From NCBI GenBank assembly GCA_017499595.2, contig CM039000.1, forward strand, positions 3,658,001-3,722,000: a DNA stretch of 64,000 nt, given 5' to 3'. Every line of letters starts with the position of its first letter. Position 1 is the stretch's first letter. The notes beneath the pieces are model-generated. The model saw only the letters and a program-made list of their open reading frames with translations. It was not told the DNA's origin and made no database searches. This stretch comes from Psilocybe cubensis. Its lineage: Eukaryota. Below are positions 8,609 through 37,284 of the stretch, one piece after another. Made by a program: the position numbers and the translations under genes.

Positions 8609-10249
8609 TTATTTTTCCTTTCGAAAAATGGACTTCACCGACTCCATACTACCTTGTATCCCGGATGAAGTAAAAGACGATAGCAACAACGTTCCCGAAC
8701 TTGTTGACTTTGGCTTACGTTTTTTGATGGTGTAAAGCTCCACTGCAACACTGTACTCGGAGTGATAATTCATCTTCGGGTTCGATGACCCACGATTCGT
8801 ATTGAAAGTGTGATTGGCCTCCCAGGTGTAGATACTGTTCTCCGACTCCGAGCTGGAATGTTTCAACAGCTTTGCCTTCAAGTTAGACGCTGCTTCTTCC
8901 TCGCTGAGCAGCGGTATTGACGCCGCACTCCAGACCTTAGCTTTATAACAGGCACCAATCATCTTCAGAGTCCCATTTGGAAATCGCCTCCGAGCACCCG
9001 TATCTGTACCGTTGAGGAGTTCATACCAGGAAACGCAATGCTGAGCCACATATTCATCGATGATCAACCTTATATTCAAGTCGGACAATCTCTCCACGAT
9101 TGCGTTGTCCGGTAAAACGAGAATGGATGCGGCAGTCTGGTGCTTTCCCTTTACGAGAATTGTTTGGAAACTATAGGCGCAGGATCTAAAGTATCTATGC
9201 GTCACTTATCATATTTATGAGCTTCGCAAGAAGACAAACCCAATTTCCTCTTCATTGCACCTCACAAGATTGTTCGTCATATAGGAAGTGCTTTGACTTA
9301 CAAGAGGGACTCTCTCAACCTGGAGTACTAGCGGTTGAAACGATGGTGTGATCTTGTAGTGCATTTCTTCGTTCTCTGCCCTCGACATAAGCGCATTGAA
9401 CACGACTTCAAAAGATCCATCATGTCTGAGAATTCCCACATCCCCAACTGAGCAATGCTTTGGTCGAAGGTGTGCAGAGAGATTAACGTTGGGGTAAGGA
9501 ATCCATAGCGGAATGGCGTGTCGAGACCCTATACCCATGTCGGAGGTCATATATGCCCGAGGGAGAGGGTCTATATCGACAGTCTTGAGCTTCTGCCATC
9601 ACTCTCCAGTTAATGCATTGTTTTAAGTAGAGCTAAATCAGTCTAACCTCCCTCGACATTAATTTGATGTGAGATTTAGAATATTGGGCCGATTTCTCTC
9701 TTGTAGTAGGCGAAGTTAGATTAGAATAAGTTGAAGATTTTCTGTTGGCTGTTTGTTCATTGTTTTGACCGCGTTCGGGGAGAGAACTTGAAATACGCTG
9801 AAACAACAGATAGGTTATATTTTATCGCCTCGAATCGATGTTTTGAAATGCCCTGCTGACCTTAAGAACTCGAAGAGCGCCTGTTTGGTCCACTATTTGG
9901 TCCACCAGAGGCTCGCCGCTAGTGACTCTAATATTTGAGGGAAGCTCTATTGCTGCATCGCGATTTGACCCATGAACTGCTGTGTGACTGGGTAGTAATG
10001 GATCGGTACCCGAATATGCAAGGCGAGGGACTTCGTGGTTTGATGCGAGTTGTTTTCCTTTGTCCTTGGATTGCTCACTGAAATCCTCAGCTGGTTGGTC
10101 TGTGGCGCATGTAAATGATGTAAAATTCTTCAATACATGTATATGGCGGCACGTATATGGAGTAAAAGGAACCTACCACATAGTATATTGAATTGAACCG
10201 TGTGGTACGTATTGGTTATCCGATTGCCAGAATTTATTACAGAAGTTGA
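8609..10249 (-). pseudogene. 3' portion of a host gene of the same family, interrupted by the 27-kb element
   Basis: Motifs IPLWIPYP, VGDVGILRHDGSFEVVFN, ILVLPDNA, WYELLN, PNGTLKMIGACYKAKVW. The exon STSVINSGNR ends at the left TSD. Confidence 0.7.
10242..10249. repeat. Left target-site duplication GAAGTTGA
   Basis: Identical 8-mer at 37277-37284; both copies lie immediately outside the TIRs. Confidence 0.93.
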
Positions 10250-10272
10250 CAAGGGGGTGCCGGTGTTCAAAA
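10250..10272 (+). repeat. Left TIR CAAGGGGGTGCCGGTGTTCAAAA
   Basis: Reverse complement of 37254-37276 with one mismatch. Confidence 0.93.
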
Positions 10273-10681
10273 TTCGGACACCACCTAGGTAGGTAGGTTG
10301 GCCGATCAGCCCCAAAAAAAAAAAATGTACCATATTTTTTTTGTCTAATTTCTGAGGAATTTCACGGTCCAAAGTTGTCTGTAATCAAGTTTAGAGCATT
10401 TTGGACTGTATTTCATAGACAAATTATGTTTTTAAACAAACACAATGCCAATCTCGTTGAAATTCAGGTTAAAATCTTCATGATAGGTGGCCGGGCTTCA
10501 AACAACACAGATATTTGACCTGATTTTGACTGAGATCATTGATTTACCGTCTGGACGCTGTCTCAAAGACATGGGTGTGCCACATGTAAAGGGAGCAAAC
10601 GGGGTTGTAATTAGTTCTATAACTACTTATTTACACTTTGACCTGTCCGATGTCGGGAAATTGAGTGAATTTTGATGAAGT

Positions 10682-10726
10682 TCAATGTCTTGGCCCTTGG
10701 CAATTCCCATTTTAGGCGATTTTGAT
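10682..10726 (+). repeat. 45-bp subterminal direct repeat, left copy
   Basis: TCAATGTCTTGGCCCTTGGCAATTCCCATTTTAGGCGATTTTGAT, identical at 37135-37179. Confidence 0.92.
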
Positions 10727-11350
10727 TTACGAGTCTTTACGTAAGTAAAGATGAGTTCTTTTATCCCCACAACCCAGCGAGCAAAAATGTCCTCGCCAAT
10801 TGTCCCCATCAAAATATTATTGATGCGATCAATTCGTTACCGGTATCGGTATTTTCCTTAAGCGGTCACCGGACCCCCTAAGCAACCCCTTTCCAAATCA
10901 TTCTACGACTTCTTTTTACCATTGGTTACTTTAAAGTTTGTTTTTGATTTGTTTTGATCGCAATGTGAATGTGCGTTTCCATAAAATTAATTACAACAAT
11001 AGTCCTACTCAATTCACTTTTTTGCGTTGTTGTTTAATTTTTAAAACCATGTGGAACCGTCTAGCCGACCTGCTTATATATTGTACTAATACTTAGAGAT
11101 GGAACAAATGCACTCTTTGAACTATGGGTCTGAAAGGTTGGAAATAGAACTTTGCAGGCACACACGTTCAATAATTACGCGTTCTTGGGTTCTGGGCGTT
11201 CTGTACTATTTGAATTTGATTTTCTGATTCATGATCGTTTCTCACGCATACCGATTTGTTCTTCCCCTACGTCGGGCGTCTATCGGCTTACGGTTAATAT
11301 ATTTATTGACGTAGGATAAACAATGCACTTTCCTCCGCACTGTTTTACCC

Positions 11351-12742
11351 ATGGCTTCCGCGTTATCCCCCCGTTTCCAACAGTATGTTCACTGTTTTAT
11401 CTCATTTGGTTATTACTTATTTTTTAGAGTCTTTCCGCCTCCCATGGACGATGTGTACATGGATCAGATGGATCTGAAAACCCTCTACCGTTTCTCTTGG
11501 ACTTGCAAGGAGCTAAGCGACCGCGTTTCGGGCTATATGCGCCGCGCCTTCCGTCCCGAAAATTTATTTGCTCCTATCTTCAAACCCGATGAACATTTGC
11601 CGTTTCGTCTTCTCCAGTTCAAGACTGGCCTGGTTATTTCAGGTTCCACCGTTTTGCATTTTATCAATTGTGCTAATACATGGATTCCGGGTGACATGGA
11701 CATGTACGTTGAGCACAGATATGCTCTTCCCGTTCTTTCCTGGATGATGTCCATTGGATTTACCATCATGCCGCATCCCAAATATCCGGACAACGCCACG
11801 GCGGAACAAATTTTGAAAATGGAAAAAATCGTCCTTCAGGAACATCCTCTTCATCGACATTACAATACCACCGGAGTGGTCGTTAACCTATGGCGCCAAG
11901 GTTCTTTCGTCCAACTGATTACGACTTGTCAATCGGTGGTAGAGTGCATTTTGGGGTATCATAGCAGTATGTCCCCAATGTCATGTGTCGAAACAATGTT
12001 AACTTCAATTTTGTTCTACTGCAGCCGGCGTCATGAATTTCGTTACCTTTGAGAAGGTGTACAGCTTGTATCCGAATGCTACCTTTGGACATCAAGTCTC
12101 TCTGTTGCAACCTCCTGCCAACCTCAAGCGCGCGCAAAAATTTCTTGCGAAATATCATTCCCGTGGCTTGAAATTTGTTCTTTCCATTCCATCGCAAACT
12201 TTGAAAATGGACCGCCATATCCGAAGCAGGATACAGTCTATCAGGGACAACTTAAATGTTGGGTATAGTTCATCTCGTGGTCATGTTCTCGTTGAGCTGC
12301 ATTACGATCCTCGTCCAGAGTTGTTCTCTCCTGGGATTAGACGGGTTGGCGACAGGCATTGTTGGGTTTATTCTTTGCCTCTTTTACCCGAAGCAAATCA
12401 GACTTCCTTTATTGAAGCCAATTCATGGGCATTGTTGCTCGATGAATTCGATTGTTTGCATTTTGGTGTCCGTCGCATCAGCGGTATCACATTGGATTTT
12501 CACTACACAGCGGCGGATGTTTACCAATTACACGAGCGCGTCAAAAAAGCTATCAAATCCTGGGAAAGGGGTATAAGGTGTGTGCTCTTTAGTTTTAGCA
12601 TTCGTCAATTTAATTCCTGTAATGTAGGCAAAAAGATGACCGTGTACATGCGACTGTTTTGTATTTGCTATCCAGAAAGGCAGATATTTTCTGGTTGCAT
12701 CGCCCTCGACCACAGAGCCTGTTGTGGAATGGATATTTGTAA
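11351..12742 (+). CDS. F-box-like N-terminus plus Pol-beta-type nucleotidyltransferase-like domain (cargo copy A)
   Basis: DLKTLYRFSWTCKEL (F-box-like); VISGSTVLHF..WIPGDMDMYV fits the hGS...DxD motif; about 3 introns; paralogue at 34252-35682. Confidence 0.65.
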
Positions 12743-12839
12743 TTTCTTCCATCCTTAGTCAAATTTTTGTTCGAAATAAACTTGTGTTCTCGTCCTCATT
12801 CTTTTCGTCTTAATTTGTAAGTTTGACTTGCGGATGAGC

Positions 12840-13019
12840 GTGGGAGAATCCTGCGTACACTGTACGCAGGATATTCCCACGGTCAACCTCTCCCGATATT
12901 CAGCCGAGTGTGGGAATATTCTGCGTACAGTGTACGCAGGATTCTCCCACGGACTTCCTCGCCGATATTCAGCCGAGTGTGGGAATATTCTGCGTACAGT
13001 GTACGCAGGATTCTCCCAC
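12840..13019. repeat. Array of three 41-bp palindromes (12840-12880, 12910-12950, 12979-13019)
   Basis: GTGGGA(AT/GA)AT(C/T)CTGCGTACA-S-TGTACGCAGGAT(AT/TC)TCCCAC; periods of 70 and 69 bp with similar spacers. Confidence 0.95.
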
Positions 13020-13164
13020 GGGGTGCCAACTAACACCTTCAGATAATTTCTGTCATGAAAATGACTTGACAAATTATTCCTTGTTATTCACAATGTTCTC
13101 GCAAATAAATTGATTGTTCGTTTAGCACATTTATGATATCCTTGTCTTTCTATGTACGTATGTA

Positions 13165-14398
13165 TTAATCTTGGGACATAGTATTGCTATTGTGGACTGT
13201 GTCCTCGTTTAAGCGCATACGTGCCATCCTCTGTTGCGTGTCTTCAATGTCAATCTGACCTTCGTATAGCTGCCTCTTTGTCCTACGCAAAACAGCGACC
13301 TGTCTTTTCGCTGGAGTATAGCGCGACCGCATTCTGAGAATATCAGCTTTCTGTTGGAAGTTATGAATGGCTATGAGACTGTTCAACGTAACATTGCTTA
13401 CCTCTCTTGCCTCCTGGTCCAAGACAAGTATTCCGCGAAGAGCGACAACGAATTTGTACTTGTTTTCTTGGGCAGGAAATGCGACAAAGGCAACACTGAT
13501 CTCGACAATGTCTCCAATTCGTATGGAGGCAGGATTATAAGCATAATATCTGTTGCAACATGATGTTAGTTTGGTTGTGATGCATTGTTGGTATTTCCTA
13601 AACATACCTGGCTGTTCCGTCAGGAAGTATCTCCCGACGAAGAAACTGTACCTCGTTATCGATCGCGTGGATGAAACCGTCCCCTACCATGGACGCCAAC
13701 ACGTTATCAGGGTCGACCAGGGGATGAAAACCTATGTTGTCAGATTCGTCTTGATATGCGGATACCTTCGTGAAATATCGGCTATGCGCATGGAAAACGT
13801 TGAAACCCGTGTCTTTGTGAAGAACTGGGTCATAGCCGCTGACGCTGTCCGCGGGAAAATTGTTTGTGAAACGGAGGAAAACTTCTTCTAGCTTTTCCAT
13901 CGCCTTATCGAACGCAATGTCTCCGAGTCCCGTGATAGCAATGGCGGTACGTAAATATGGTCGTTGCTTGACCATTCTGTCGCGGCTGTAACACAGTGTT
14001 AAGTCCTCATTCGTAATTAATTCACCTCAATGGAGTGGACGTACGAAGCAGGCTTTGCCATTGGTGGTAGAATCTTTTCCCTAACTATGCCTTGGAGTCT
14101 GAATATCACTTCGTCCATTGCACCGATATCCACGTCAAAGTCGGACACCCTCCATGATTTGGGCGTCAAGAATTCGGTGATTTCATACTTCTGTATCTAC
14201 ATGAGTCGTTAGCAAGTTTTTGAAGCTTAGCAATTGAATTCCTTACATCCGCGTCGCATAATTGAACGTGGCTGGGGTTCAATCGTTGTTCGTTCACTAT
14301 TTCTTCAAGTTTAAGTTCTGAATCTTGATCAGCTTTTGTACGCATGAAGAATGAAAGGACAACTCACTCGCGGCGTTTATGTCGTAGTTCTCGTCCAT
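13165..14398 (-). CDS. Multi-exon cargo protein, putative OB-fold / ssDNA-binding-like
   Basis: Joinable exons MDENYD..., EVIFRLQGIVREKILPP, AIAITGLG...HSRYFT...DNEVQF, PASIRIGDIVEISVAFVAF...VALRGILVLD. The fold call is inferred from the beta-strand pattern. Confidence 0.55.
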
Positions 14399-14807
14399 TG
14401 TTAATGACGTTCCAAGGGTGTCAAAGTACTTCTGTATCGTGCTCAATCAAATCACACTTGATATATTATAATGTATGCCCGCCCCCCCTATTCTTGCTGT
14501 TCTTCATTTATGCCCCCTGTTCTTGTGGATCTTCATTTTTATCTTTCTTGGTACGATCATTCGCACCATGGTCTTTGGATATTCTCTTCAAGCGATCACT
14601 AAAATTGATCAGTCATTCCTTTGAGAATTCCAATATTTCTGCTGGGTCAAATTTCTTCCTGCTCTCCTGTTTACTTCGCGTCTGAAAGATTCGATGGCCC
14701 TGATCGTTATCTACATCCAAGCCAATTGATTTGGCATATATTCTCTGTTCTCCCTCTTCTCGTCCTTGTCATCCACGCTTTGACTTTCCCTAAGACTTCG
14801 TCCTTAA

Positions 14808-17780
14808 ATGCCTCCTAAAGCTAAAAAGAACGCTGATACTGCTGCTTTGGCAGTTTGACTTCCGTTGCCAGCTCTTGCTGTCCCTCCTGTTAGTGCAGCG
14901 CCCCCTGCTCGAAAGGTTGCCAACAAACGAGTTGCTGCGGCGAAGGTTGTCAAGTATGTACCTCTGTTATTTTGTTCCCAAATTTAACTTACCTTTATCT
15001 TCGTTTTTCTCCTTAGAAAAACTGCTGACATGGACGCCCAGGTTAAGAGAGCTGCCCCAAAAAAGAAAACAACGTACAGTGTTTTTATTCGTCTTGCTAT
15101 AAGTCTGTTGTTGACCATTGTGTGCTTTTAGTAAACCTGCGTCCAATGTTGTTGCTCAACAGCCCCCTTTGTCCGAAGTCCCTCCTGTACAGCCCAAGAA
15201 GGACCATGTGACTGTCAGTGAAACGAAATTCAGGCCTGGGTACGTTTTCTTTCGTTTTATAGATTGTTTTGCGCTCTAAACCTATTTTTTTAAATAATAT
15301 TCGCACTTTTTATAGAAACCCCATGTACGTTTCTCCTTCGGGCAATTACGTTTCGTTTCTAATGAATTTCTATATCAGGCTTCGCCAAGGAGCTCCCGCA
15401 GCGGCGACGGTCAACGCGGTCGAAGCTGATGAGGAATATGAAGGGGCGTCTGATGCAGAAGAGGTGGTTACAGACGGTGAGCTGCGTGACGAGGATGATG
15501 ATGATGATGACCACGACGACGACGACGACGAAGATGAAGAGGAGCAAGGCGGTGACTCCGAAGACCTCGATGACTTCATTGAAGATGATGAAGACGCACT
15601 TGAGGACGAAGAATACGAGGAGGAAGAGGAGGAAGACGAAGACGACAAAGATGTTGAAGATGACTTGAACAATCTTGAAGAGCAAGGAGGTATTCTTACT
15701 GACGAAGGAGAGGACATTGAGGAGCCAATTAAAAAGTTTGTTATCATTTTCACTGTCTGGTCAATTATTGATTGAACATCATCAGCGTCCCCGCACCTCC
15801 CATCGACGAGTGAGTCTTTTACTCACTTATTGGTATTTTTTCTCTCACTGTATTGTTTCTAGTGTCTTTACTTCCGCCCCAACTCTCCGGAAATCCCGCA
15901 AGATCAAAAGGCCGAGGGAGTCTACCCCTACACCTGAGTTTCCTACGCAGTATGTTATTCATCAGTTATACGGATTTTCAAGTCGTACTGATATGGCTGG
16001 TTTTTTTTTTAATCTCAGTGGGTCACAATTGCCAGCAACACCCGCAACTCCGGTTGCAGATAGGTCTCCGTACGTTACAATTAATTTGATTTGAACTTTG
16101 GTTTTTGTTGACCCTAGCGGTGCAGTACCAAACGTATGCGCACGGAACCTCCGCCTACGCCTTCTCCGACGAAGAGGGCCACCCCCAAGAAGAAAGCCAG
16201 CGAAACTCCTGCTACTCCTGCCAGGCGATCAGCCCGCAAGGCCGCTGCAGAAACTCCGTCCTCCAGGATGAATGCTCTTTCTATCGTCGATATTGGAACT
16301 CCTTCTTCGATCCCTGAAAGCAAATCTCCTTCAAAAAATACCCGCAAAGTGTCGACACCTCGTTCCAAGATTGCGAAGAAGTCTCAGGCACCCAAGGCGG
16401 GAACTGTTTCTGTTGCTACCGACAATGACACTGTTGTTGTGTCCGCCCCCGTTACAGCCAGCGCTATTGCTCCTGTTGTCACCAGTGCCGCTATTCCGGC
16501 TCCCAGTGTTGTGCCACCCGCCCTGGGACCACGTAGCCTCCGAAATCCTGCTCTTTTGGTATACAACTCCGATCTCAATAGTGTTCAATCAGCGTACGTG
16601 TTCTCCTTTATTTTGTGACATGAGCTTACACATACATTCGTATATCATTCAGGGCTTTGCCATTTGCGTGCGAGGTTTCGGTTGGAATTACTAGAGATCC
16701 CGAACTCGAAGTGAAAGGATGTTACAAAAACCTTCCACACCTCAGGTAAACCTCAAATCATATGCGACACAGCACACATGTTGACAGATAGTGCAGGCAA
16801 ATAGAGACCTTTAGCAACGTCGACACCACTCAAGTTCATGGGCTGGTGGGCTTCAGTCAATTGCAACAGTGGCATGGCGCGAATTTTCCCTCCAGGTAAG
16901 TCGCTTATGTGTCATTATTTGCCGTCCTTCGTGATATATCTCCCAATGGTAGTTTCCTTGCATCCTTCCTCAACTTTTCCATTGAGGAATGTTTCGCCAA
17001 TCTTGGTCGCGTTAGCCCTTTGCTATTGAAGTCACAGTCCATGTGGGGACAACGTTACGAACTTCGAAACGCATCTGGAGAGCCGTTACAGTGCCTAACT
17101 CCAATTGTGACAACGTCCTCGTTTCTTCACGAAATGAATCCTCGATTGACATGGGGAGGCCATTACGTCCAAGGGGTTCCGATGGCATATTGGTGGGACC
17201 GGGCTTTGGCTGTCATCGGGATGGTAACCCATCAACCAAAGTTAGAGGTCCCTTCCTACCACAACGCGATACAATTTACCACCAAGAACAAACCGAACGA
17301 CAAAAGTGGTAAGTACCATAATTCTATTTGGCTATGTGACATTCCTGACTACCGCACATAGCAGATGAACAAATGAGCTCTACCGCGCAGACACTTCCTA
17401 AGTCGCTTTTTACAACCGCACCGGCGGTATCGCTCAAGACGACTCCTCAGCCCAAGAAAAAAGCCACAATGTTGGCTTACAGCGAAAAATGTGAGTCCTC
17501 AGTTTATCCCGTTATTTATTGCCAAGTTTAATACGTCGCGGCAGTTCCCATTTATGATTTGCGTACTTTGTTGAAAGATTTTCCTGAGAAGACTTTCACC
17601 AAGGAGATGCTGGAAGACAGAGATTTATATCTTCCTTTGTGGAATGAAATACCCTATGGTTCGTTGGTCATTATGTCCCATATGATTCACATCGCACAAC
17701 CTGCGACCGGTGGAAATCATTTTAAATTGTTCAACTATGCACAGTGGGGATTTTTGCTGTCCAGTCCAACTGTTGACTAG
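14808..17780 (+). CDS. Multi-exon cargo gene: K/P/A-rich start, long D/E tract, P/S/T-rich linker, beta-rich C-terminal domain (possibly OB-like); possible early stop
   Basis: ORFs 15269-15775, 16136-16618, 16909-17361 and 17559-17780 are separated by GT-AG introns. C-terminus VPIYDLR...LPLWNEIPYGSLVIMSH...QWGFLL. In-frame TGA at 14856. Confidence 0.55.
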
Positions 17781-17979
17781 AGAGTGGGTTGCAAATATGT
17801 ACCTACTCTTCGCTTTTAATTCTACATAAAACAATCAAAGTTTGTTTTACTATCTATGGCATTCAAATTCTGTTATTCTGTGCCGTTTCAAGTGGTTTTG
17901 AGGTGGTTGGACCATAATGTATTGGTGACGTCGACATGATATAAAATCAAATTGGACACAGGGGTGACGTGCTGCCACC

Positions 17980-18020
17980 GTGGGAATATCCTGCGTACAG
18001 TGTACGCAGGATGTTCCCAC
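17980..18020. repeat. Single 41-bp palindrome (stem extends to 17977-18023)
   Basis: accGTGGGAATATCCTGCGTACAGTGTACGCAGGATGTTCCCACggt. Confidence 0.95.
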
Positions 18021-18286
18021 GGTCATCCTGTTTATGAACTTGCTTAACTGAGCGTCTATTTGATGCTCATGCTATCCAGCTTTAAGATCTCTATTCATAT
18101 TCATGCCATACACGAAATAACATTTCCTTAGTTTTGCAGCTGTCATATAAACTCCTTAGTTATGCACCTGTCATATAAACTTGAACAGATACACTTGCCC
18201 TAAAGTCGTGTTTTTTTTTTTCATCATGATGTTTCATTTCCTTTCTTTCACTTTTCACTTTCTTCGTATCTCTCAAACGATTCAGA

Positions 18287-25167: not shown

Positions 25168-25194
25168 ACTGCACATGACCTACAGCTTGCCATG

Positions 25195-28100: not shown

Positions 28101-31100
28101 TGATTCTATCTCGAGCTTCTTGTAGTGTGTTTTTCCATTGTGCTGCAGATTTTTCTACTGCGGGAACAAATCTTTCAGTATTGAGAGAGGGGATTTCTTT
28201 GCTCTCTTCTGTCCAACCACATTTTTTTAGAATTCTGTGTGCTTCCTCTTGTTGTTGTAACTTTCGGGTTGCTTGTTCTGATAATGATTTGTATCGGTCT
28301 TCTCTTTGCTGATACCCTTCTGATATATACTCTTCTTCCTCTTCTTCTTCATCTGAACTTTCATCATAACCCTTACGAAGGGCAGCCTCTTTGACTTTGC
28401 GCTTTAGTTCACTGTGGAAGTCATCCCTAGCATCTAGACATTCATACTTCAAATTTAAATTAGTCATTATCTCAAGATCTTTTTGTTCAAAGCCGTGTTG
28501 ACGAAATGCATCACTCCAACTTTCTTCTTTACTTTTCAAATCCAGTGCGGTTCGCCAAGGTTTAAATAGTGTCAGCATAGTCATGCAGTAATACTCTCTA
28601 TCTCCGCAATCAGAGTGGGGCAACGCTCCACCCACAAAATTAGGTATTGTTGTTTGTAGGCAAGACAGATCAACAGTAACTTGGTGGCTTCGAAAATGAG
28701 GGTGGCTTGGCATGAACGATTGTTTAGTGAACTTTCTTGAAGGAGCATCCACATCTTCCCACTCGTTATCTTCGATGCCTGATAGTTCTTCTAGAGATTC
28801 ATCAAAGGCTTCTATGTCTTTCTTGCTTCGCTTCTTTTTGCTGCTGGTCTGAATCCATTGGATCACAGACATTCCATCGCATTTCGTTGGTCTGTTTTTG
28901 TAGTCGTCAATGTTAGACTTGCCAACGTATTCACCCTCTTCTCGACTGATCAGTACTCTGTCTTCAAATTCCGCATCATCGCTAGTTTCCATTGCTGGAT
29001 TGTCTTGGGCAACATCGCCATGTCCTTCTTCCCAGGTTCTCTTAACCTCTGCAACGTAACTTCTCCACCACAGGGGCACAAAGGTATGACTTGTGTAATG
29101 ATCTGGGTTATCCAAAAGATATAAACACGCCATTGGACTTCCAAGTTCGGTTTTCGATGACAATGCGTTGACAATCTTTAGTACAAGTTTTCTACCCGCT
29201 TCAATGGGTGCATGTAAATTTCCTGAAATTAACTCAGAGTTCTTCGAATAGATGTCATAAGCGGAAGAAAATATCTGATGTGTTTTGAGCGTTGGCTTTG
29301 TCACATAATCCGTAACATATGAGATAATGGCTTTGATACTTGTCCCTGATAGAAGGCTGGTAACATCTGTATTGCAACGGGTAACATAAGTTAAACAATC
29401 AGAGACCGTATTCATCATAGATTCTAATTTCTTCATATATACGTGGCCGTCGGTTTCATCCACTATTGTTTCTGTTCTCACTTCACGAGGAAAACGTGCC
29501 ATACAGACATTGTCTTTGTTAAGGCATCCCTTTTGTCCGTTTCTAGCAGCCTTACCAATGGGACCATCTGTTTTTGGTAGCTCAGATTCCTTGACGGGTG
29601 TATCATGCACCTCTGTATTAGTGCTTTTCTTGGTACCTTTGGGCGGTCTCAATTTTGTTGATGCTCTACAACTATGCATATTGGACCTGAACAATAAATC
29701 GTCCACAGTAGAAGTGTAATTGTCCTTCCATTGCTTGTATGTTGTGCAAGGAGCACAATTCTGATGAATGGTATAAATTTTGTCACTTTCTTTGTGATGA
29801 TCGCGACATGGATCCGGGGGGGGGATGGGTAATGTCTGTGTCGGGTCTTGATACATCGACAAATCAACCTTGTTGAGTTGAAGAGAGTTCTCAGTTGGTT
29901 TCTTAATGGTATGGATACCTGTGTTGGTGGTACTTAGTGAAGGTAACCTCGCTTCAATGCTTTCCTTGGTCCCATTTAAAAATTGGCCAATGTGTGATGA
30001 CTCTAGATAGTCTACCAATGCTCTTTGAAAATCAGAATCTTTACTCATAAGCTTATTGCGTATATCCTGCGGAGATAACGCCCCTTCAATCCATAACATC
30101 ATGTGCAAATGTAAAGTTAGACGACCTTGTTGCTCAACAGTGCCATAGTACGCTGATGTTTTACCGTACAAGCCTGGGTGATCCGTTCCTACTCCAAGAA
30201 CATGCTTGATGACCATTTTCACCATAAAATCAAAGAAACGGGCCGCTGCAACAGGATTGGAGAGTACCAATAAATCACGAATTTTGGCGGATTTTAGCTC
30301 CGGAGAGAAACTGATGTCATCTGCAGCGTAATATAAGCACAAGGGATGCCTATTATCTGCGGGCGAAAACGTAATAAACCATGAAGGAGCACCTTTGAAA
30401 GCTACTAGCGACCAAATTTCATTACGCATGTATTTCTTGTTCGTCAGTGACCCCGGTACCTTACCCCCAACATGATCCAAATCATTCAAAATGCTAAAGC
30501 AAAGTTTCTCTGAATCTGTTTCCGGCGTTATATGTTCTCCCTCTGCCATTCTCTGAGAAATTGATTCCAATACTCCCGGATTTATTTGCACAAGTCTTTT
30601 TGCCACGGAATCAAAATTCTTTCGCTTGGCTAGCAAGAAGCTACCTGTAGTTCCTCCTCTAATTTGTTCTTCATTGAAAGCAACCATAGGAAAATACAAG
30701 TCACGTTGGAAACGCTTGTCGTGATACATTAGCAGTAGTTTTTTGTGCCGCGCATTCGATAATTTCTTTTTGTGGCGTGGCTGTCCAATACCTCCTTTTC
30801 CGTACGGAAATAACCAAGGAAACATTTGAGGATACAGTTGAGGATTATTGTACCATGATTGCGGAGTATTATCATGGCCGATAGCCAATGAAACACCACC
30901 GCTATCCAAATGCTTCAGCGCTCGCACTTTAAGATTTTGCAAAGACATTTTATCGTACTCCTCACCCGTCAACCCGTGAACTGTAAAAGGACATACACCT
31001 TCTTCTGTACCTTCTTCCATTTCATTATCAAATTTGCTCATTGCGGTCGGAATTTTATTGGAATCACTGTAAGTGACTTTGTAATCCACGATGACGGGTA

Positions 31101-33495
31101 CTCCTGCCAAAGGATATGAATTCAAATTATCATAAGATATTTCAAGGTCGGCATAGTCAGAGTGGTTCAACTTAAGCCATTCTAAAGCTTTGGCCACAGC
31201 ATTACGCCTAACGAACATTGGTGTTCTTTTAAATTCCTCGTCTGTCGGTCGTGTCGGCCCTATGAAAATGAATGCCAGGACGTCGCTCAACTCTTCTTGA
31301 CTAGGAGGTAAAGCCTTGTATACTTTCAAAGTAGGGTTCGCAAACATTATACAATTGGCAATCATTTTTGCCCTACCCGATGACACTCGTACTAAACATC
31401 GGTTATGGCGAACCCGCGATATCATCATTTGTTCGGCAAAAGTTAAATTCTGTAATACGGGTGGAACTTCTCCAACCCAAAGCCCATTCGCCAAAGATTC
31501 AGTGGGTATTTTACTCTTTTCGACACATTTATGACATTTCGGACAGATACGTTCACATCCGTGCGCCAGCACCGGACCAGGTACATCTTCAATAGGGTCA
31601 CTTGCTGACGAACGCTCTTTCCTAGTTATCCCGGGAACCTGTAACACATCTAGTTCATAGGATGGAGGAATTGGCATCAACATTTTGAGTTGGACAAGTT
31701 GTCCGCATACGGCGCATCCTGCCTCTTCAAACTCGCCAGGATCCATGTCTTTACAGAATCCAGATATAATTTTGCGTACCAATTCATCGTTCACCGGTTT
31801 GGGAGGAAACATGCTGGGTGATGGCGATGATGTGGTATTTTGAGGCTTTGAACGAGGTTTCTGTTCCTTTCGCCAAATCTTTTTGACATTAGCTCGGTGT
31901 TCTTTTATCTGCTGTTTGCTGTTTCCCTTTTGAAATACAAAATAATGAAGCTGACAATTTTTGCAAGAATGGCCTTGGTATCTGGCCATATTCTGTACTT
32001 TTGAATGATGATTATTGAAAGGAATGTTGTGTAATTTACTTAAGGCAACGAGTTCGTCTCTCTTCAATAAAGGGCATATCAAACTTAATGGGGTCTGTGC
32101 AACAATGAACTCCCCGTTCGTAATGAAGTTTTCCAGTTTGTCCTTGCCGACATAATGTTTCAGAACATAAGTGTCAGTTGGATTCAATTCAGCATTGATG
32201 GGATATACCACAAAATCAGATATATCGCTTCCTTTTAATGACTTTACAATCCTTCCACCACCCATAAGCGCAGGATGAGAGGGCACAGGTCTTTTGTTGT
32301 CGGCTACTATTGATTCTACACTTGAATTGTCTTTTAAACACATGATTGAGAGTAAAGCACTATCGAGATAGTATATAAGTAAGTGAAATGAATCAGACAT
32401 TGAATTGTTTTGTAATATGTGCCAGACATATCCCATTTCAAATGCAATACAATCTGCCACGTCGTCTGCAATGATTTGAGAAACACAAAGAAATAAAGCT
32501 TTTTGTAATACAGTTCTCGCTTTGCTTATTCCCATCCTGAACACGTAATTAAGGAAAGCAATGTAGTATGTAGTCAATATAAACAAGAGATCTACGGCGT
32601 TCAAATTGAAAGTGATATTCCTTATAAATATGATTTCCTCGTTGACTCTGTTCATCAAATTCCGTATGTGTTTAATCACCGGACGATCCATGATTAACAG
32701 ATGAAAGCAATGAGCTATTGATAGATCGCTGTTAAAATAAAGGACCATATATGTTATAAGATGGAAACACTGTCGATCTATCCAACAGAGGGTTTTGCCA
32801 TACTTCGAGACAACTTGAATAACTGATAGATGATATTTTTCAAACGAAGCTACTTCCCTTATGGACGTGCAAGCTCTTTGAAAAGCATTTTGGAAATTTC
32901 CAACTTTACCTATCATGATGTCGAAATCATGACGAGAAGTAATATATCTCGACATGTAAAGCTTAATGTAAAGTATTATGGTAGATATACGATCGTGCAT
33001 GTTATGCTGCAAGCAATAGAGTTGGATATTGTAAGGGCGTACATAACTGTCAAAATTTAATGTCGCCAACTTGGATAGTACCCAAGTTACGAATGACTTC
33101 AGTTCTGGAAACCACAAATTTTCTGTCCACGGACATTCTTCGCCAGAGAAATGTGTGAAAAAAGAGAGGCCGTGTGTTATATCAATTGTGGACGAAGTAG
33201 CTAAAGGTTTGACAACGTGAATCACAGTGTAGTGCGGATGTATGATTGGGTTAACCATATCGACAGTACTTTGGTTTACAAAGTGTAAATTTTCGACGCA
33301 ATGGTGTCTTGCTTCATGTGTCAGGGGCTGATGCATCATCGAACAAACGATGTCGTGACCAAGTGTGGCTCTATGTTGTTGGTGTTGATGCATCATTGAA
33401 TAAACAATGTCAAGAGAGTATCCATGTACGTGAAGTACAGGATCGAGATAGGTATTGGTGACATCTCGCTGTTGTGGCGCATTAACCAACAACAA
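25195..33495 (-). CDS. Helitron/Helentron-type RepHel: HUH (Y2) Rep + PIF1-family SF1B helicase + C-terminal USP-like Cys protease; intronless, first ATG at 33396
   Basis: Rep motifs WFITFSPAD, VEQQGRLTLHLHMMLW, YVTDYVTK. Helicase motifs GMGGTGKT, APTGTAA, FVDEVSMI, GDFAQLPPV, MRQ, TDYASQGKT, YTCLSR. Protease-like motifs SCAYDS and EHFSCR...WFHDG. Confidence 0.95.
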   Translation of the reverse strand: MLLVNAPQQRDVTNTYLDPVLHVHGYSLDIVYSMMHQHQQHRATLGHDIVCSMMHQPLTHEARHHCVENLHFVNQSTVDMVNPIIHPHYTVIHVVKPLATSSTIDITHGLSFFTHFSGEECPWTENLWFPELKSFVTWVLSKLATLNFDSYVRPYNIQLYCLQHNMHDRISTIILYIKLYMSRYITSRHDFDIMIGKVGNFQNAFQRACTSIREVASFEKYHLSVIQVVSKYGKTLCWIDRQCFHLITYMVLYFNSDLSIAHCFHLLIMDRPVIKHIRNLMNRVNEEIIFIRNITFNLNAVDLLFILTTYYIAFLNYVFRMGISKARTVLQKALFLCVSQIIADDVADCIAFEMGYVWHILQNNSMSDSFHLLIYYLDSALLSIMCLKDNSSVESIVADNKRPVPSHPALMGGGRIVKSLKGSDISDFVVYPINAELNPTDTYVLKHYVGKDKLENFITNGEFIVAQTPLSLICPLLKRDELVALSKLHNIPFNNHHSKVQNMARYQGHSCKNCQLHYFVFQKGNSKQQIKEHRANVKKIWRKEQKPRSKPQNTTSSPSPSMFPPKPVNDELVRKIISGFCKDMDPGEFEEAGCAVCGQLVQLKMLMPIPPSYELDVLQVPGITRKERSSASDPIEDVPGPVLAHGCERICPKCHKCVEKSKIPTESLANGLWVGEVPPVLQNLTFAEQMMISRVRHNRCLVRVSSGRAKMIANCIMFANPTLKVYKALPPSQEELSDVLAFIFIGPTRPTDEEFKRTPMFVRRNAVAKALEWLKLNHSDYADLEISYDNLNSYPLAGVPVIVDYKVTYSDSNKIPTAMSKFDNEMEEGTEEGVCPFTVHGLTGEEYDKMSLQNLKVRALKHLDSGGVSLAIGHDNTPQSWYNNPQLYPQMFPWLFPYGKGGIGQPRHKKKLSNARHKKLLLMYHDKRFQRDLYFPMVAFNEEQIRGGTTGSFLLAKRKNFDSVAKRLVQINPGVLESISQRMAEGEHITPETDSEKLCFSILNDLDHVGGKVPGSLTNKKYMRNEIWSLVAFKGAPSWFITFSPADNRHPLCLYYAADDISFSPELKSAKIRDLLVLSNPVAAARFFDFMVKMVIKHVLGVGTDHPGLYGKTSAYYGTVEQQGRLTLHLHMMLWIEGALSPQDIRNKLMSKDSDFQRALVDYLESSHIGQFLNGTKESIEARLPSLSTTNTGIHTIKKPTENSLQLNKVDLSMYQDPTQTLPIPPPDPCRDHHKESDKIYTIHQNCAPCTTYKQWKDNYTSTVDDLLFRSNMHSCRASTKLRPPKGTKKSTNTEVHDTPVKESELPKTDGPIGKAARNGQKGCLNKDNVCMARFPREVRTETIVDETDGHVYMKKLESMMNTVSDCLTYVTRCNTDVTSLLSGTSIKAIISYVTDYVTKPTLKTHQIFSSAYDIYSKNSELISGNLHAPIEAGRKLVLKIVNALSSKTELGSPMACLYLLDNPDHYTSHTFVPLWWRSYVAEVKRTWEEGHGDVAQDNPAMETSDDAEFEDRVLISREEGEYVGKSNIDDYKNRPTKCDGMSVIQWIQTSSKKKRSKKDIEAFDESLEELSGIEDNEWEDVDAPSRKFTKQSFMPSHPHFRSHQVTVDLSCLQTTIPNFVGGALPHSDCGDREYYCMTMLTLFKPWRTALDLKSKEESWSDAFRQHGFEQKDLEIMTNLNLKYECLDARDDFHSELKRKVKEAALRKGYDESSDEEEEEEEYISEGYQQREDRYKSLSEQATRKLQQQEEAHRILKKCGWTEESKEIPSLNTERFVPAVEKSAAQWKNTLQEARDRIIKDKMRNIATSSGPGRFNTEELVPNQVKLVNASWFQRDFVAKQCLDPKQIIDSTVKEFSLNKDQERAFRLVANHASTIYADPLKMYLGGMGGTGKTQVIKAIISMFKKRNEGHRFIVLAPTGTAAALLNGSTYHSALGIHIMGNKEAGTSGSTANSINELRQKLAGVEYIFVDEVSMISCHELYAISSKLAILTNVHDQPFGGMNMVFAGDFAQLPPVNGSYLYSNDVALKQDASMSVRKQESTIGKILWHQITTVVILKKNMRQRSQSPQDSKLRTALENMRYAACTPEDIEFLHSRTSSSVKGRPSVREPKFRNVSIITAWNVQKDKINILGCVRFAKDTGQELTDFYAVDSFKDDDDDLPNNKRKRKTSNKSKRSKLDDIDKEALWNLDPSSSEHIPGKLSLCLGMPVMIRHNYATELCITKGQEGVVCGWDSEISPDNKPCLATLYVKLINPPQTVNIPGLEENVVPIYRHNIRVNCQMPNGTELNVMRKQIHVLPNFAMTDYASQGKTRPLNVVDLGNCKTHQSYYTCLSRSASADGTVILQGFDSFKITKGISGHLRQEFRELEQLNKITELKYNSELNDQVNGLLRNTLIKSYREWSKGRDDSHDWHPALQMSPNEISDSQPKDNALWNEQVNMLTAITPIVRKTKKKMLRPNTQSAPQPDMMVPLNKKTRVELEEAEAPLGVKWDNVNFSCAYDSVFTLIYHLWKSNVLLWNNRLTGNHSMYMDTLINEFIKMSLGFSNLQMARDVVRRKLNNDIGEETFPYGQALTSMDSLCLHLLGTEQCGEGSYHCTACGYSSAPMNLRFSALNIINPNSQNDNTKITDIFNYCAEYVSNKECRRCSNESNKHILTNITQIKSVPSLMGIENVNPTHCLPEPVVEMTICDVDGNHHKMRLCGLVYSGSEHFSCRTIESNGTVWFHDGITTGDKCIFEQVVNLQSDMSWLKTCRQKKLFLYLYHKVSA

Positions 33496-33762
33496 GGATG
33501 TAGCATACTGTGTCTGGGTGGCATTTACATTGAGTACGTGTCAAATTCAAGGTTATAAATGACAACTCACATAATTGCGGATAATGGAGTATGATCCACA
33601 TAGGATGAAAAGCCAACATGCAATGGCAAATAACTTTATGGTAGTTGGGAGACAAGGAGAACAGATTCGGAAGGGAACGGTACAGGTACTACCATAAAAG
33701 GCAGCATACCTCATGATCGCGACCCGTCGCGTTGGGCCGGAGAGGGGTAACACCGATGTGGC

Positions 33763-33803
33763 GTGGGAATATCCTGCGTACAGTGTACGCAGCGTTCTCC
33801 CAC
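33763..33803. repeat. Single 41-bp palindrome upstream of RepHel (stem extends to 33758-33808)
   Basis: gtggcGTGGGAATATCCTGCGTACAGTGTACGCAGCGTTCTCCCACgccac. Confidence 0.93.
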
Positions 33804-34251
33804 GCCACCCTAACAAGCAAAGACTTCTATGAATCGTAACCCGTTGCGGTGTGCATGGTTTATGATCTCCTACTTATTTACCCGAGAAATATTTCAGGAA
33901 CTTATGGACTCATTCACTTCATAATGAAATAATGTATACCAGTGTTTTTAAAATTTAATGTCTGCGTGGATGGACACAGTTCGGCAATTAATAAGAACTT
34001 TTGGCAAAGTCAATAGCACACTTGCAACGATCTGTTGAATTCCAAAGTGTTCCATTCCAAAGTGTACTCCATGCTATAGGCATGTTATTTTAGCAAGCCC
34101 CTGACCATATCGATCCAATCTTCTCTTTTTCCAATGCTTGTGATCCGATATCAAATGGCCCCCGGAAATATGTAGAGCCGCATAGCCCAGCACAAAAAAT
34201 CTGCGTTATATATCCTAGCCGTGTGTCGCGGGTTTCTTTGGCTGTACTGCG

Positions 34252-35682
34252 ATGGATTCCGACAAACGATCAAACCTATCAGACTCCTTTAGACGGTACC
34301 ATATTCTTTCCAATATCAGGCAGCGTGCGCAAACTGATGAGTACTTCTCAATGCAGCATATTCCCTGAAGTCATGGACCGGGTCTACATGGATCAGATGG
34401 ATTTAAGAACCTTGATCCGGTTCGGTCGGTCGTGTCAAGAACTCAACAGCAGAGTGGAATCATATATGGGCCATACATTCACTGTCAGCCGCTATCTGGA
34501 ACCAGTCCTTCTACCAAGCGAACATTCATCATTCCGTCACCTACAATACGATACTGGTCTTGTCATTTCAGGTTCTACGGTTTTGCATTTTATCAGCCGT
34601 GACACTTCTTGGAGGCCTGCGAATCTTGACCTGTATGTTGAACTTAGACGTGCATCCCCCGTCATCGCATGGCTACTTTCGGCGGGCTTTATATATCTAT
34701 CTCGTCCGTTTGACGATGACTATGAAACAGCACAATCTGCGCTAAACAAAGCTCAACATATTCTCAACTACAACAAAGAACGGCCCGGAAGAGACAACTG
34801 TCGCGGTGTCCAGCTCGCCTTTTGGAGGAACTGTCATTTTATCACACTATACGCCACCACGCATTCCGTCATGGAGGCTATCCTGACTTTCCACAGTAGT
34901 AAGAAATATTCAAACTTGAAACCGCTTTTTCTAACTCTGAGGTTCTCGCAGCCGGTATTATGAACATGATTACGCACGACAAAGTGTACAGTTTGTATCC
35001 GAACGCCACGTTTGGACACCAGCTATTCCTTTTGCAACCAGGCTTCGACTTTAAACGCATACCATGGATCATGATGAAGTACCACGCGATAGGTTACAGT
35101 TTCGCCTGTTCCTTACCTCAGAACACCCCTGCCCAATTTCACGCCTATACCTACAGAACGAGCGACGTTAAAAACGCACTTCGCGTTAGCTACCACGACG
35201 AAACTTTGGGCAAGGCTATCAGAATTAAAGTTAATCTCGATCCGCAATCGGGTTCTGTCTTCCGTTCCGGTATGCGTCGTGTGGGAGACTCTCAATGTTG
35301 GGTATTCAAGTTGCCCTCTTTGAGTGTCGCGGAGCAGGATCAATTAATTGAAGGCAACACCTGGTCTTTGTCGACAGACAAATTAGGGTGCTTGCATTTG
35401 AGCTGGAACAGGTTGGAATACCTTGAACTCGGTGGTTTCTATACTTCCGTTGAAGTCCCCTTGTTCATATCCCTCCTGGAAACCATTTTGCGCACATGTG
35501 ACACTGACAGGTATGTTATCATATTTTAAAGTCTTTATACAGCTAAAGTTTGTTTCAGTGCTTTGGACAATTGCTTGTTGAACAACGTTAAAGGTCTTTT
35601 AACGGACGACGAAGTTATCTCTGCAGCTAACAAGCACCCAGTGCTAAGTGCGCTTTGGGACGGGCTGCACATAGACGGGTAG
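34252..35682 (+). CDS. F-box-like plus nucleotidyltransferase-like protein (cargo copy B)
   Basis: Shares MD.VYMDQMDL.TL.RF, TGLVISGSTVLHFI, KVYSLYPNATFGHQ and G.RRVGD..CWV with copy A, with equivalent introns; the acidic motif reads NLD instead of DMD. Confidence 0.65.
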
Positions 35683-36164
35683 TTACGATAATTAGATTTG
35701 GCGTTAACGAGATGAAATGTGATCTTCGCTTCCGTAACAAACTGCTAGTCTCCAAGATATGTAGGGCGTGTGAAACCAGGAAGTTAACACCCACTAAGCA
35801 AGAAGATCAAAGATCATGCTAAGATGCATCAATCTAACTTAATGAAATAGTGGTACTTGCTATATTAAGTAAAAGTACATTCTTCGAAATTTTCGAAGCA
35901 CTATATTGATCCCTGTGCGCCACAAAAGCCTTGAAAGGCTTTATGTGTCCAATAATGATTTGTTATACAGCCAAATGTGGATCATGAGTATAAAACAATT
36001 ACTGAAAGTTTAGTATATCTTGTGAAGTTCACTTGTTAAAAATTACTATACAAAACACTATAGGCATTCTTGCAAACCAATACATGTCTCAAAATTTCAA
36101 GAGACAGGGTAAATCATCATATATATAACTGATCACAAAGCTACTAATTTTCTCACTATTGTAA

Positions 36165-36810
36165 CTACTTGCGAAGACGGGCAGCGGCGATGGCTAAGGG
36201 CGTAACAAAAGGAGTGGAGCCTTCATAGACCGCACGCATGACGGCGGCGGGTGCACGAACTCCCTTCATAACTGAGGAACAAGGTCAACACCCACTGATA
36301 TGATAAAAGAAGAGGAAGATATAGAAAAGTACCTGCAATAGCGCGCTTACGCGCCTCGAAATCGACCGCGTCGTCACGCGGGGCCCCACCGGGGGCATCA
36401 GATACTAGAGAAATAAAAAAAAAACGTGTTTAATGCAAAATAAAAAGGAGAGAGAGAGAGAAAGAAAAAGAAACGCACCGTTGGCGGCCGCGACTGCCGC
36501 GCGCATGCGTTTGTTAAACGCGTCGATGTCGATGGAACCCGCGGCTACAAAAAAACATCAAAAAACCTTCAACAAATGCAAAAAATCAGAGAATACGGAC
36601 GATATACGTCCGTGACGCCGTCTAAAAGCGATAGGTGAGTTAATAACGATTGAAAACAGGCCACTACTCACCTTTAACGAATACGCGCGCAAGCGTTTTG
36701 CCTGCACAGCGCGAAACGCACGAAACGCGATGAATAAAATGAAACAGCGGATAAAAATAGATTCGGCACGTACCTGCCGTCAATGCCGATCCGTCCGAAT
36801 TTTTTGTCAT
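36165..36810 (-). CDS. Small multi-exon Ala/Arg-rich hypothetical cargo protein
   Basis: GC-rich exon-like blocks (MTKNSDGSALTA, SIDIDAFNKRMRAAVAAA, DDAVDFEARKRAIA, VMKGVRAPAAV...RLRK*) separated by GT..AG T-rich segments. Confidence 0.35.
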
Positions 36811-37134
36811 TTTTTCGGTTTTTTTTGAGCACGAGGTGGGCCGAATACTTCTGGGAGGTGTTGGAGATGGTGGGGGTTGGGAAGAAAGAGGAAGATGGGC
36901 GGGTCTGTTTGACCCCCACCACTTCATGGCAGCCCATCGACTTCTAAGAAGTCGATAGCCGCCATTGCGCCGCGCTTCTTCAGTTACCCAAACGGGCGCG
37001 CGGGAATGATTTCGAGATTTGTAATTATATTTATTATTTATATTATATTATATATATATTATATTATTACAAAGCGTGACGCTGAATCGTAAAGACTCGT
37101 CACGCCACGCTCCGCGGTGGCCCACTAAAACAAG

Positions 37135-37179
37135 TCAATGTCTTGGCCCTTGGCAATTCCCATTTTAGGCGATTTTGAT
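37135..37179 (+). repeat. 45-bp subterminal direct repeat, right copy
   Basis: Identical to 10682-10726, same orientation. Confidence 0.92.
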
Positions 37180-37253
37180 CGTTATGTAATGGTCACGAGG
37201 TAGGTAGGTTGCCCAAATTACCTCGAAATAAAAAATATGAGGTCGTGTTTTTT

Positions 37254-37276
37254 TTTTGAACCCCGGCACCCCCTTG
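37254..37276 (-). repeat. Right TIR
   Basis: TTTTGAACCCCGGCACCCCCTTG. Confidence 0.93.
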
Positions 37277-37284
37277 GAAGTTGA
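37277..37284. repeat. Right target-site duplication GAAGTTGA
   Basis: Identical to 10242-10249. Confidence 0.93.

Follow-up and report, generated by a model that had tools for sequence, protein, structure and literature searches.

A 27-kb insertion in Psilocybe cubensis that probably nests a Helitron2-type element within a short terminal inverted repeat transposon

Can a transposon whose ends resemble those of hAT cut-and-paste elements be driven by the Rep/helicase (RepHel) of a Helitron? This question is raised by an insertion at 10242-37284 of a 64,000-nt stretch of the Psilocybe cubensis genome (contig CM039000.1 of assembly GCA_017499595.2, positions 3,658,001 to 3,722,000), which was analyzed as a whole and is called the window hereafter. 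An earlier note on this DNA had described an element bounded by terminal inverted repeats (TIRs) plus an 8-bp target site duplication (TSD) around a RepHel gene, and had read it either as a giant non-autonomous vehicle that had captured a Helitron and its cargo or as an undescribed hybrid. The data presented here make it probable that two unrelated transposons of known kinds are nested in the 27-kb insertion, a short element termed T1 on the outside and a Helitron2-type element termed X on the inside.

The outer ends could be confirmed from the window sequence. A perfect 8-bp direct duplication, GAAGTTGA, encloses 27,027 bp, and the 23-bp TIR CAAGGGGGTGCCGGTGTTCAAAA at its left edge (10250-10272) recurs as the reverse complement at 37254-37276 with one mismatch (22/23). 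The 21-nt core of this TIR is found only at these two sites of the window and had 0 matches in 100 shuffles; under uniform base composition about 0.002 inverted pairs matching at 22 or more of 23 positions are expected per 64 kb, and about 3e-8 when a flanking 8/8 direct repeat is included. At the level of Pfam, RepHel also holds up as the sole recognizable mobility gene, with no DDE or KDZ transposase: 18 open reading frame (ORF) translations from the element contained no family above its cut-off, and the six frames of 10250-25200 and 33541-37276, with stops written as X, contained none at E<=0.01. Three features had been absent from the earlier note, namely a pair of inner ends (10727 and 37134), a 45-nt direct repeat, and a series of 41-nt palindromes.

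The inner ends delimit element X, which starts with TTACGAGTCTTTACG directly inside the 45-nt repeat (D5) and closes with GGCCCACTAAAACAAG. The 13-mer ACGAGTCTTTACG is present exactly twice in the window, where about 0.001 further copies are expected; the two copies are inverted and lie 2 nt from the left and 34 nt from the right end of X, and hairpins are found at both ends (that of the 5' end with -4.7 kcal/mol, z -2.6). Helitron2 elements are reported to possess asymmetric TIRs of 8-15 bp, the 5' copy of which lies 0-2 bp inside the element end and contributes to a 5' hairpin, two hairpins in all, a 5' T, and a 3' copy about 20-30 bp from the end beside a hairpin (Bao & Jurka 2013, PMC3627910). 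The first base of X is T and its 5' repeat pairs downstream into a hairpin, while the 3' partner lies slightly beyond the quoted range; in the FoHeli elements of Fusarium this distance is given as 38-51 bp (PMC5148889). The premise that Helitrons lack inverted terminal repeats is thus wrong for the Helitron2 group as described in these two papers. X does not fit Helitron1 (5' TC, 3' CTRR, a single 3' hairpin, A/T insertion), having the ends TTACGAG... and ...AACAAG and two hairpins. Insertion without a TSD, a further property of Helitron2, does not apply to X with its flanking 45-bp direct repeat; exceptions are reported, and membership is not excluded by it. Judged by its sequence, X probably belongs to the Helitron2/HLE2 group.

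The ends of both elements can be followed in the reads and contigs of four strain runs (X1, X8, X9, and X12), which were compared over 6001-26000. Since X12 reads break at 10250 (226 reads, agreement 0.42) and sharply at 10727 (344 reads, agreement 0.39) with unlike flanks, these two positions are ends of repeated elements residing at many sites. In X12, 496 reads have the reverse complement of the 37134 end adjoining 11663, as do contigs of X1, X8, and X9; hence, the 3' end of X occurs elsewhere as well, again followed by T. In most genomic copies of the 5' part of X, position 11663 is followed by the inverted 3' end of the same Helitron family and by the inverted first ~27 nt of its 5' end, an insertion that may be a very short non-autonomous derivative within ORF A. 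A few reads pass from 11451 to 10727, a tandem arrangement.

The same end signals were recovered from relatives of RepHel in soil metagenomes. Among 5,476 candidates, 492 were related to RepHel at E<=0.001, and the 120 matches listed measured 1,784-2,913 aa, all possessed Helitron_like_N, PIF1, and DUF6570, and reached a best full-length identity of 51%. An alignment of nine proteins was used to fetch metagenome loci, the best 80 of the 427 confirmed ones (941 kb) were retained, and element borders were set by comparing copies in different sequence contexts. Borders starting with TTACGAGTC and a hairpin were obtained in this way from L018/L042 and L031/L033, and borders ending with GGCCCACTCCCAACAAG from L022/L027. 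The motif TTACGAGTC occurs 24 times in the 80 loci, compared to about 7 times expected under uniform composition. Fourteen of these copies, in 11 loci, are located 1.6-7.6 kb upstream of RepHel on the same strand with the hairpin next to them; six are inverted and downstream of RepHel (L019, L031, L033, L043, L074, L079), of which those of L031, L033, L043, and L074 adjoin a hairpin-like motif and then a CCCAC-type sequence; two lie downstream on the same strand (L015, L041) and the last two inside RepHel. On the 3' side, CCCACT-N-AACAAG is found four times, always 74-86 nt past the RepHel match, and CCACACCAAACAAG twice, at 61 nt past it, each copy being followed by T; these six loci amount to four independent families, given that L027/L028 and L008/L039 are near-identical. 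When the 5' hairpins were aligned, 74.8% of the cells were paired, compared to 31-43% when the alignment was slid, and both partners vary in 6 of the 11 pairs. Over its first 41 nt, X shows 87.8% identity to L041:17494-17533; apart from this stretch and one low-complexity hit, blastn of the non-coding interior of X against the 80 loci gave no match. Because the same motifs bound RepHel relatives, the 5' end in 11 loci and the 3' end in six, the inner block carries the ends of its own RepHel clade. In locus L011 (24-141), the 5' end is tandemly repeated, with four copies of the motif and its hairpin in 120 nt. The matches listed for the end-motif 9-mer included no related publication, the supplements of relevant papers not being covered, and those for Psilocybe and Helitron jointly, judged by their entries, included none either.

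RepHel, an ORF of 2,781 codons without a stop, possesses the Pfam domains Helitron_like_N (3e-31), PIF1 (2e-28), and DUF6570 (PF20209; E 7.5e-42), the last of which is present in 9/9 aligned relatives. According to HELIANO, DUF6570 marks the HLE2 (Helitron2/Helentron) clade, and some HLE2 subgroups are enriched in the UCH domain (PMC11417382). The residues H1144/H1146, Y1408/Y1412, G1905-K1908, and D1986/E1987 are invariant in the nine aligned proteins, and we read them as the HUH motif, the two catalytic tyrosines, and the SF1/PIF1 helicase motifs. For the last 302 residues (2480-2781; 25198-26103 on the minus strand), modeled with 14 relatives, the predicted fold had a mean predicted local distance difference test score (pLDDT) of 81.9 and a predicted template modeling score (pTM) of 0.80. 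The structure matches shown were all proteases of the USP family (or USPL1), with a best E of 4.4e-11 and template modeling (TM) scores of 0.46-0.60, and C2512, H2724, and D2740 are invariant in the nine-protein alignment. The model thus predicts that the C-terminal domain folds as a USP-type deubiquitinase; Pfam detected no UCH or OTU family in the nine proteins, the USP likeness being one of fold alone. By DUF6570 and this predicted USP-fold domain, the protein sequence places RepHel on the Helitron2/HLE2 side. Ahead of the first residue alignable with relatives (MGGG...), its frame is open for another 425 codons (32266-33540, minus strand), and the relatives likewise have 300-390 poorly conserved N-terminal residues.

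The outer element T1, whose two parts (10250-10726 and 37180-37276) add up to about 574 bp, is likely to be a non-coding TIR element, short and unrelated to X. Its arm is present at approximately 3-8 times the single-copy depth in X1, X8, X9, and X12, as estimated from read depths, and joints between 10272 and 10726 on opposite strands exist in X1, X9, and X12. In X9, the T1 ends reach a depth of 113 compared to about 25, and the right-end joint a depth of 119. A contig of X8 continues from D5 with the letters of the window from 37180 onward, that is, with the T1 right arm. The 27 nt preceding D5 in this contig are unlike either context in the window, and the left border of D5 is for this reason a recurrent junction. 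As a single insertion, T1 has the 8-bp TSD and the short TIRs with a YARNG-type terminus (CAAGG...CCTTG) of hAT elements, and it resembles non-autonomous (miniature inverted-repeat transposable element-like) members of this group in being non-coding and multicopy. It differs from them in that it is linked to no hAT transposase and in that GAAGTTGA departs from the hAT target consensus; no hAT DDE transposase with a C-terminal dimerization domain was detected by Pfam inside the insertion, in ORFs or in six frames. Starship-type giant elements are defined by a tyrosine-recombinase "captain" gene at one end, and no such Pfam family was found in any frame of the insertion. The 8-bp TSD would also fit Zisupton/KDZ, of which the six-frame Pfam scans found no KDZ family; Zisupton and Dileera are likewise reported to make TSDs of this length (PMC12730594). 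Our best guess is that a hAT-type enzyme encoded elsewhere moves T1. The T1 arms gave no blastn match in the 80 metagenome loci.

The strain runs reveal that the locus is occupied in some strains and that its parts differ in copy number. Whereas the X1 contigs of 2.7-6.4 kb have 0-2 differences from the window and are thus nearly identical with it, a contig of X8 (11,620 nt, at the full depth of 41.4) matches 9486-10249 and then continues for 10.8 kb without any match to 10250-26000. It breaks off with the final base of the TSD, which is what an unoccupied site would produce. Of the empty site that the earlier note had suggested looking for in other strains, the left junction is thereby seen, not the joint with a single GAAGTTGA. 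X is layered, consisting of a 5' part at about 20 copies, a unique stretch, and an inverted block with RepHel and a JmjC-like gene (depths in Table 1). The interval 14005-17339, which no contig of X8 or X9 covers, is present about once in X1 and X12, and 18674-26000 is found at 1x in X1, at about 3x in X12, at half depth in X8, and in no X9 contig. Although the site is empty in X8, the segment 17983-26000 forms one contig there, at half depth and with 99.2% identity.

The two copies of D5 (10682-10726 and 37135-37179) form a perfect 45-nt direct repeat of T1 sequence that flanks X. Helitrons normally make no TSD. For Helitron2 derivatives of Chlamydomonas, TSD lengths of 7-19 bp are reported and, for some of them, lengths of 44, 50, 93, 242, and 443 bp (PMC3627910). 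We infer that D5 is the target duplication made when X entered the 574-bp T1. T1 would have been inserted by a cut-and-paste transposase encoded elsewhere, with formation of the 8-bp GAAGTTGA duplication; X would then have entered T1 by its own rolling-circle mechanism, leaving the 45-bp duplication of T1 sequence on each side. The RepHel clade would recognize the ends of X, namely a 5' T-TACGAGTC with hairpin, the subterminal inverted copy, a 3' hairpin, and ...CCCAC-N-AACAAG followed by T. The idea of a non-autonomous TIR vehicle holding a Helitron and its cargo comes close to what the data indicate, whereas the word "captured" does not fit it: given its complete ends and a duplication of its own, X has most likely inserted itself.

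A number of observations speak against such a plain nest. The first of them concern X. Downstream of RepHel on its own strand, the window contains no canonical 3' end; RepHel is inverted relative to the ends of X, unlike in the 11 loci with an upstream 5' end on the same strand; and both a 5'-like end (33839, minus strand) and a 3'-like end (33817, plus strand) lie inside X. X may therefore be a read-through or rearranged composite and not one clean element. The missing own-strand 3' end and the copy-number steps at about 14.1 and 17.98 kb make a composite the best reading of X, formed either through nesting or through read-through past one 3' end to the next, the latter being the usual model of Helitron capture (PMC6431247). 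The minus-strand motif TTACGATTC is located 1,574 nt upstream of RepHel residue 426, a distance that resembles the 1,621 nt between the 5' end and the RepHel match of L013, so that the RepHel block looks like an inverted element with its 5' end kept. Some Helitron2 families are known to have RepHel in inverted orientation (PMC3627910). The base preceding TTACGAGTC is A or G in the 11 relatives and T in X, and the locus pairs L027/L028, L008/L039, L031/L033, and L018/L042 are near-identical and not independent of each other. As to T1 and D5, a simple 574-bp copy of T1 was not seen in the four runs, and the sole X8 contig across D5 has a different sequence on its left. Helitron2 insertions ending exactly at the consensus 5' end are described as being without a TSD, and the 5' copy of a Helitron2 duplication as usually lying directly after TTTT (PMC3627910); in T1, a TTTT lies 9 nt upstream of the 5' copy of D5. 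The strain data, finally, come from 4 of 15 runs, the empty site of X8 is seen on its left side alone, and an absent contig match does not prove the absence of a sequence.

Among the alternatives to X entering T1 in place, we regard it as possible, though on balance unlikely, that X entered T1 at another site and that the whole 27 kb was later cut and pasted into its present position by a DDE transposase acting in trans on the T1 TIRs. The perfect TSD and the nearly perfect TIRs would fit such a move of the entire insertion, as would the fact that X8 has neither T1 nor X at the site, with no allele containing T1 only among the four runs, and the single-copy state of the composite (14005-17339 at about 1x in X1 and X12), which cut-and-paste transposition would leave. 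However, only one of the four runs informs on the site, this scenario requires one event more than insertion of X in place, a second location of the composite was not seen in the four runs, and no transposase is known for T1. The RepHel block of X8, which occurs without the unique stretch, moreover indicates that this block moves by itself.

It is less likely still that the T1 arms gained X together with the 45-bp repeat through recombination or template-switching gap repair, in which case D5 would not be a target duplication. One such route would start from a Helitron circle with a read-through copy of D5 that recombined with the D5 of T1. Helitron circles with joined ends have been reported (PMC5148889, PMC6431247), a filler-DNA model is discussed for fungal Helitrons (PMC4289320), the 45-nt repeat is perfect and sits exactly at both junctions, and the D5 border recurs in X8 with a different preceding sequence. 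Yet the insert extends exactly from the canonical 5' to the canonical 3' end, which is the outcome of transposition and not of random filler, and no reads with the order 3' end-D5-5' end outside T1 were seen, no search having been aimed at such reads.

A true hybrid, in which RepHel or an unrecognized cargo protein moves the whole element through its CAAGG...CCTTG TIRs and makes the 8-bp TSD, is very improbable. It could draw on the lack of a DDE transposase inside, on several cargo ORFs without a known family, and on the 7-19 bp TSDs that derivatives of Helitron2 can have (PMC3627910), but the evidence did not bear out this second reading of the earlier note. The ends of T1 are unlike those of the RepHel clade, and the latter lie inside the insertion; the copy number of T1 ends is several times that of the RepHel block; and X9 contigs with T1 ends showed no RepHel block. 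The T1 arms have no counterpart in the 80 loci, and 0 of the 37 loci with at least 300 nt on both sides of RepHel have a TIR pair with TSD around it, a single AT-rich 18-mer inverted pair without TSD being all that was found, although on such short contigs this evidence is weak. A chance pair of TIRs and TSD or an assembly mis-join deserves practically no credence in view of the expectation given above, of X1 contigs with 0-2 differences across 14125-25032 and 25152-26000, and of X12 raw reads that cover all 30 bins.

Table 1. Features of the insertion, listed from left to right (positions in the window), followed by X12 read depths with the copy numbers estimated from them.
Feature	Position	Strand	Remarks
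Left 8-bp TSD copy GAAGTTGA of T1	10242-10249		X8 contig matches the flank up to exactly 10249
T1 left arm, non-coding; TIR 10250-10272, D5 (10682-10726) at its end	10250-10726	+	Sequence, reads
Element X, Helitron2-type element or composite with canonical ends of the RepHel clade	10727-37134	+	26,408 bp
X 5' end: TTACGAGTC, asymmetric inverted repeat ACGAGTCTTTACG (10729-10741), hairpin (10734-10751)	10727-10751	+	7-bp stem, 4-nt loop
High-copy 5' part: ORF A, three palindrome units (12840-13019), ORF B	10727-14125	+	About 20 copies per genome; X12 depth
ORF A, F-box-like	~11444-12758	+	Atlas lead: F-box-like clusters
ORF B	13165-14026	-	Relatives in 10-11/80 loci
Single-copy stretch with acidic/lysine-rich ORF series (15263-17361)	14126-17979	+	No Pfam family; no X8/X9 contig match
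41-nt palindrome at copy-number change, start of X8 RepHel-block contig	17980-18020		-25.1 kcal/mol, z -8.6
ORF D, 451 codons, cysteine-rich N-terminus, coiled-coil-like C-terminus	18230-19585	+	No family found
Multi-exon gene, 1,279-aa protein	20087-24813	+	UniRef "JmjC domain-containing protein" (Psilocybe cubensis)
Three tandem 60-nt units, each with 41-nt palindrome, from 28 nt past RepHel stop	25007-25167		Other copies: one unit
RepHel ORF: DUF6570 (675-807), Rep/HUH (936-1149), PIF1 helicase (1873-2085), predicted C-terminal USP-like cysteine protease (~2500-2781)	25195-33540	-	
Second end-like signals: palindrome (33761-33805), CCACCCTAACAAG (33805-33817, +), TTACGATTC (33831-33839, -)	33761-33839		
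ORF A', diverged paralogue of ORF A	34094-35529	+	71-74% DNA identity over repeats found
Candidate small gene, GC-rich, ~five short introns, ending ...AIAAARLRK	36160-36990	-	Read by eye; no family found
X 3' end: hairpin around inverted repeat 37088-37100, then GGCCCACTAAAACAAG, then T	37074-37134	+	8-bp stem, 37074-37081 with 37098-37105
T1 right arm: D5 (37135-37179) and a further 97 nt with the TIR (37254-37276) at their end	37135-37276	+	Sequence, reads
Right 8-bp TSD copy GAAGTTGA	37277-37284		Sequence
Depth: flank			~27-48 (both directions summed); 1x
Depth: T1 left arm	10250-10669		Not read off directly; several-fold (estimate)
Depth: 5' part	10670-14004		~650-715; ~20x (estimate)
Depth: unique stretch	14672-17339		~42-53; 1x (estimate)
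Depth: RepHel block	18007-26000		~96-143; ~3x (estimate)

The cargo of X comprises several further genes (Table 1). Relatives of ORF B lie between a delimited 5' end and RepHel in L003 and L042, and ORF A and its paralogue A' stand near opposite ends of X on the same strand. What had appeared as ORFs E, F, and G is one gene, to which the JmjC-named protein of UniRef maps; three pieces of this protein match over 20087-22973 at 66-92%, and five pieces from 23006 onward match at 98-100%. The JmjC signal itself is weak (JmjC_2 with E 0.0092 and JmjC with E 0.039, both below the Pfam cut-off), with Atlas leads to JmjC/cupin proteins. Relatives of this JmjC-like gene were found near RepHel in 4/80 loci. 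A TET/JBP reading of the dioxygenase-like gene was unsupported, the leads favoring JmjC/cupin, and sequence searches of the PDB with two of its exons and with the JmjC-named protein returned spurious antibody or polyketide-synthase matches, or none. X8 (depth 38.6) and X12 (27 reads) harbor a deletion variant that lacks 2,934 bp from ORF D to the JmjC-gene region (19146-22081), with 3 letters standing at the joint. The small minus-strand gene at 36160-36990 may be a captured host gene. Outside the insertion, which sits in the spacer between two paralogous ORFs of one family in opposite orientation (7065-9598, minus strand; 38245-39400, plus strand), these neighbors have the motif ...NGSLYLVTG.DKA..W... 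in common.

The near-perfect 41-nt palindrome is found eight times in the window, only in X (12840-13019, 17980-18020, 25007-25167, and 33763-33803). In strain contigs, it reaches about 25x depth, with other flanks, and the number of tandem units varies between copies; the joint 24992>25162 is present in X8 and in 75 X12 reads. Long palindromes also lie near RepHel in the relatives L037/L073, L040, L030, L008, and L004. Since the sequences of these are unrelated, we dropped the 41-nt palindrome as a candidate for a conserved signal of the clade. The position of the palindrome at 33761-33805 matches that of the 3' hairpin of the relatives, with CCACCCTAACAAG next to it.

Among known systems, X is most akin to Helitron2/HLE2 elements as described by Bao & Jurka (2013, PMC3627910), for HELIANO (PMC11417382), and for FoHeli (PMC5148889), with which it has in common a DUF6570-containing RepHel, the 5' T, asymmetric repeats, two hairpins, and a USP/UCH-type domain. 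It is much larger, with 26.4 kb compared to the 5-11 kb given for FoHeli (PMC5148889) and the "6-7 to 14 kb" given for fungal elements (PMC6431247), and unlike these it possesses several complete multi-exon genes, repeated 41-nt palindromes, extra inner end-like signals, and a 45-bp flanking duplication despite a complete 5' end. The CRe-1, 2, and 3 elements of Chlamydomonas are similar in their Helitron2 ends and their variable TSDs, some of 44 and 50 bp, but these TSDs accompany 5'-truncated copies and lie directly after TTTT, and the elements are non-autonomous and algal and carry Fanzor (PMC3627910). HELPO1 and HELPO2 of Pleurotus ostreatus, also from an Agaricomycete, contain "captured" genes of unknown function and are polymorphic between strains; one strain has, and the other lacks, a 37.2-kb region in which a 576-bp inverted repeat harbors a HELPO1.1 copy (PMC4289320). 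They differ from X in that their RepHel measures about 1,400 aa, their ends are of the canonical T[C/G]...CTRR type, they insert at A/T sites without TSD, and they are 1.5-13.7 kb in size (PMC4289320).

With these results, the claimed new class of transposon that combines a Helitron enzyme with hAT-like ends is removed, and the locus becomes a worked example of nesting that mimics a hybrid. X has about twice the upper size given for fungal Helitrons in a 2019 review (PMC6431247) and contains whole multi-exon genes. The end signals of the clade, TTACGAGTC with its covarying hairpin and CCCAC-N-AACAAG followed by T, were recovered from unrelated soil-metagenome contigs and could help to annotate an abundant family of RepHel proteins of 2,100-2,900 aa. 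Because strains of a single species differ at this locus, existing data allow tests of the order of events and of any current mobility of the elements. How Helitron2 integrates is a question to which the 45-bp duplication is relevant. It is a tentative and rather doubtful proposition that a full-length 26-kb mushroom Helitron2 made a 45-bp TSD, and that X can be moved both by rolling-circle copying and by cut-and-paste transposition of T1. If true, long and variable TSDs, so far described only for truncated algal derivatives, would be general to Helitron2 integration, and 26 kb of DNA with RepHel, a JmjC-like gene, and at least five other ORFs could be moved by two unrelated machineries.

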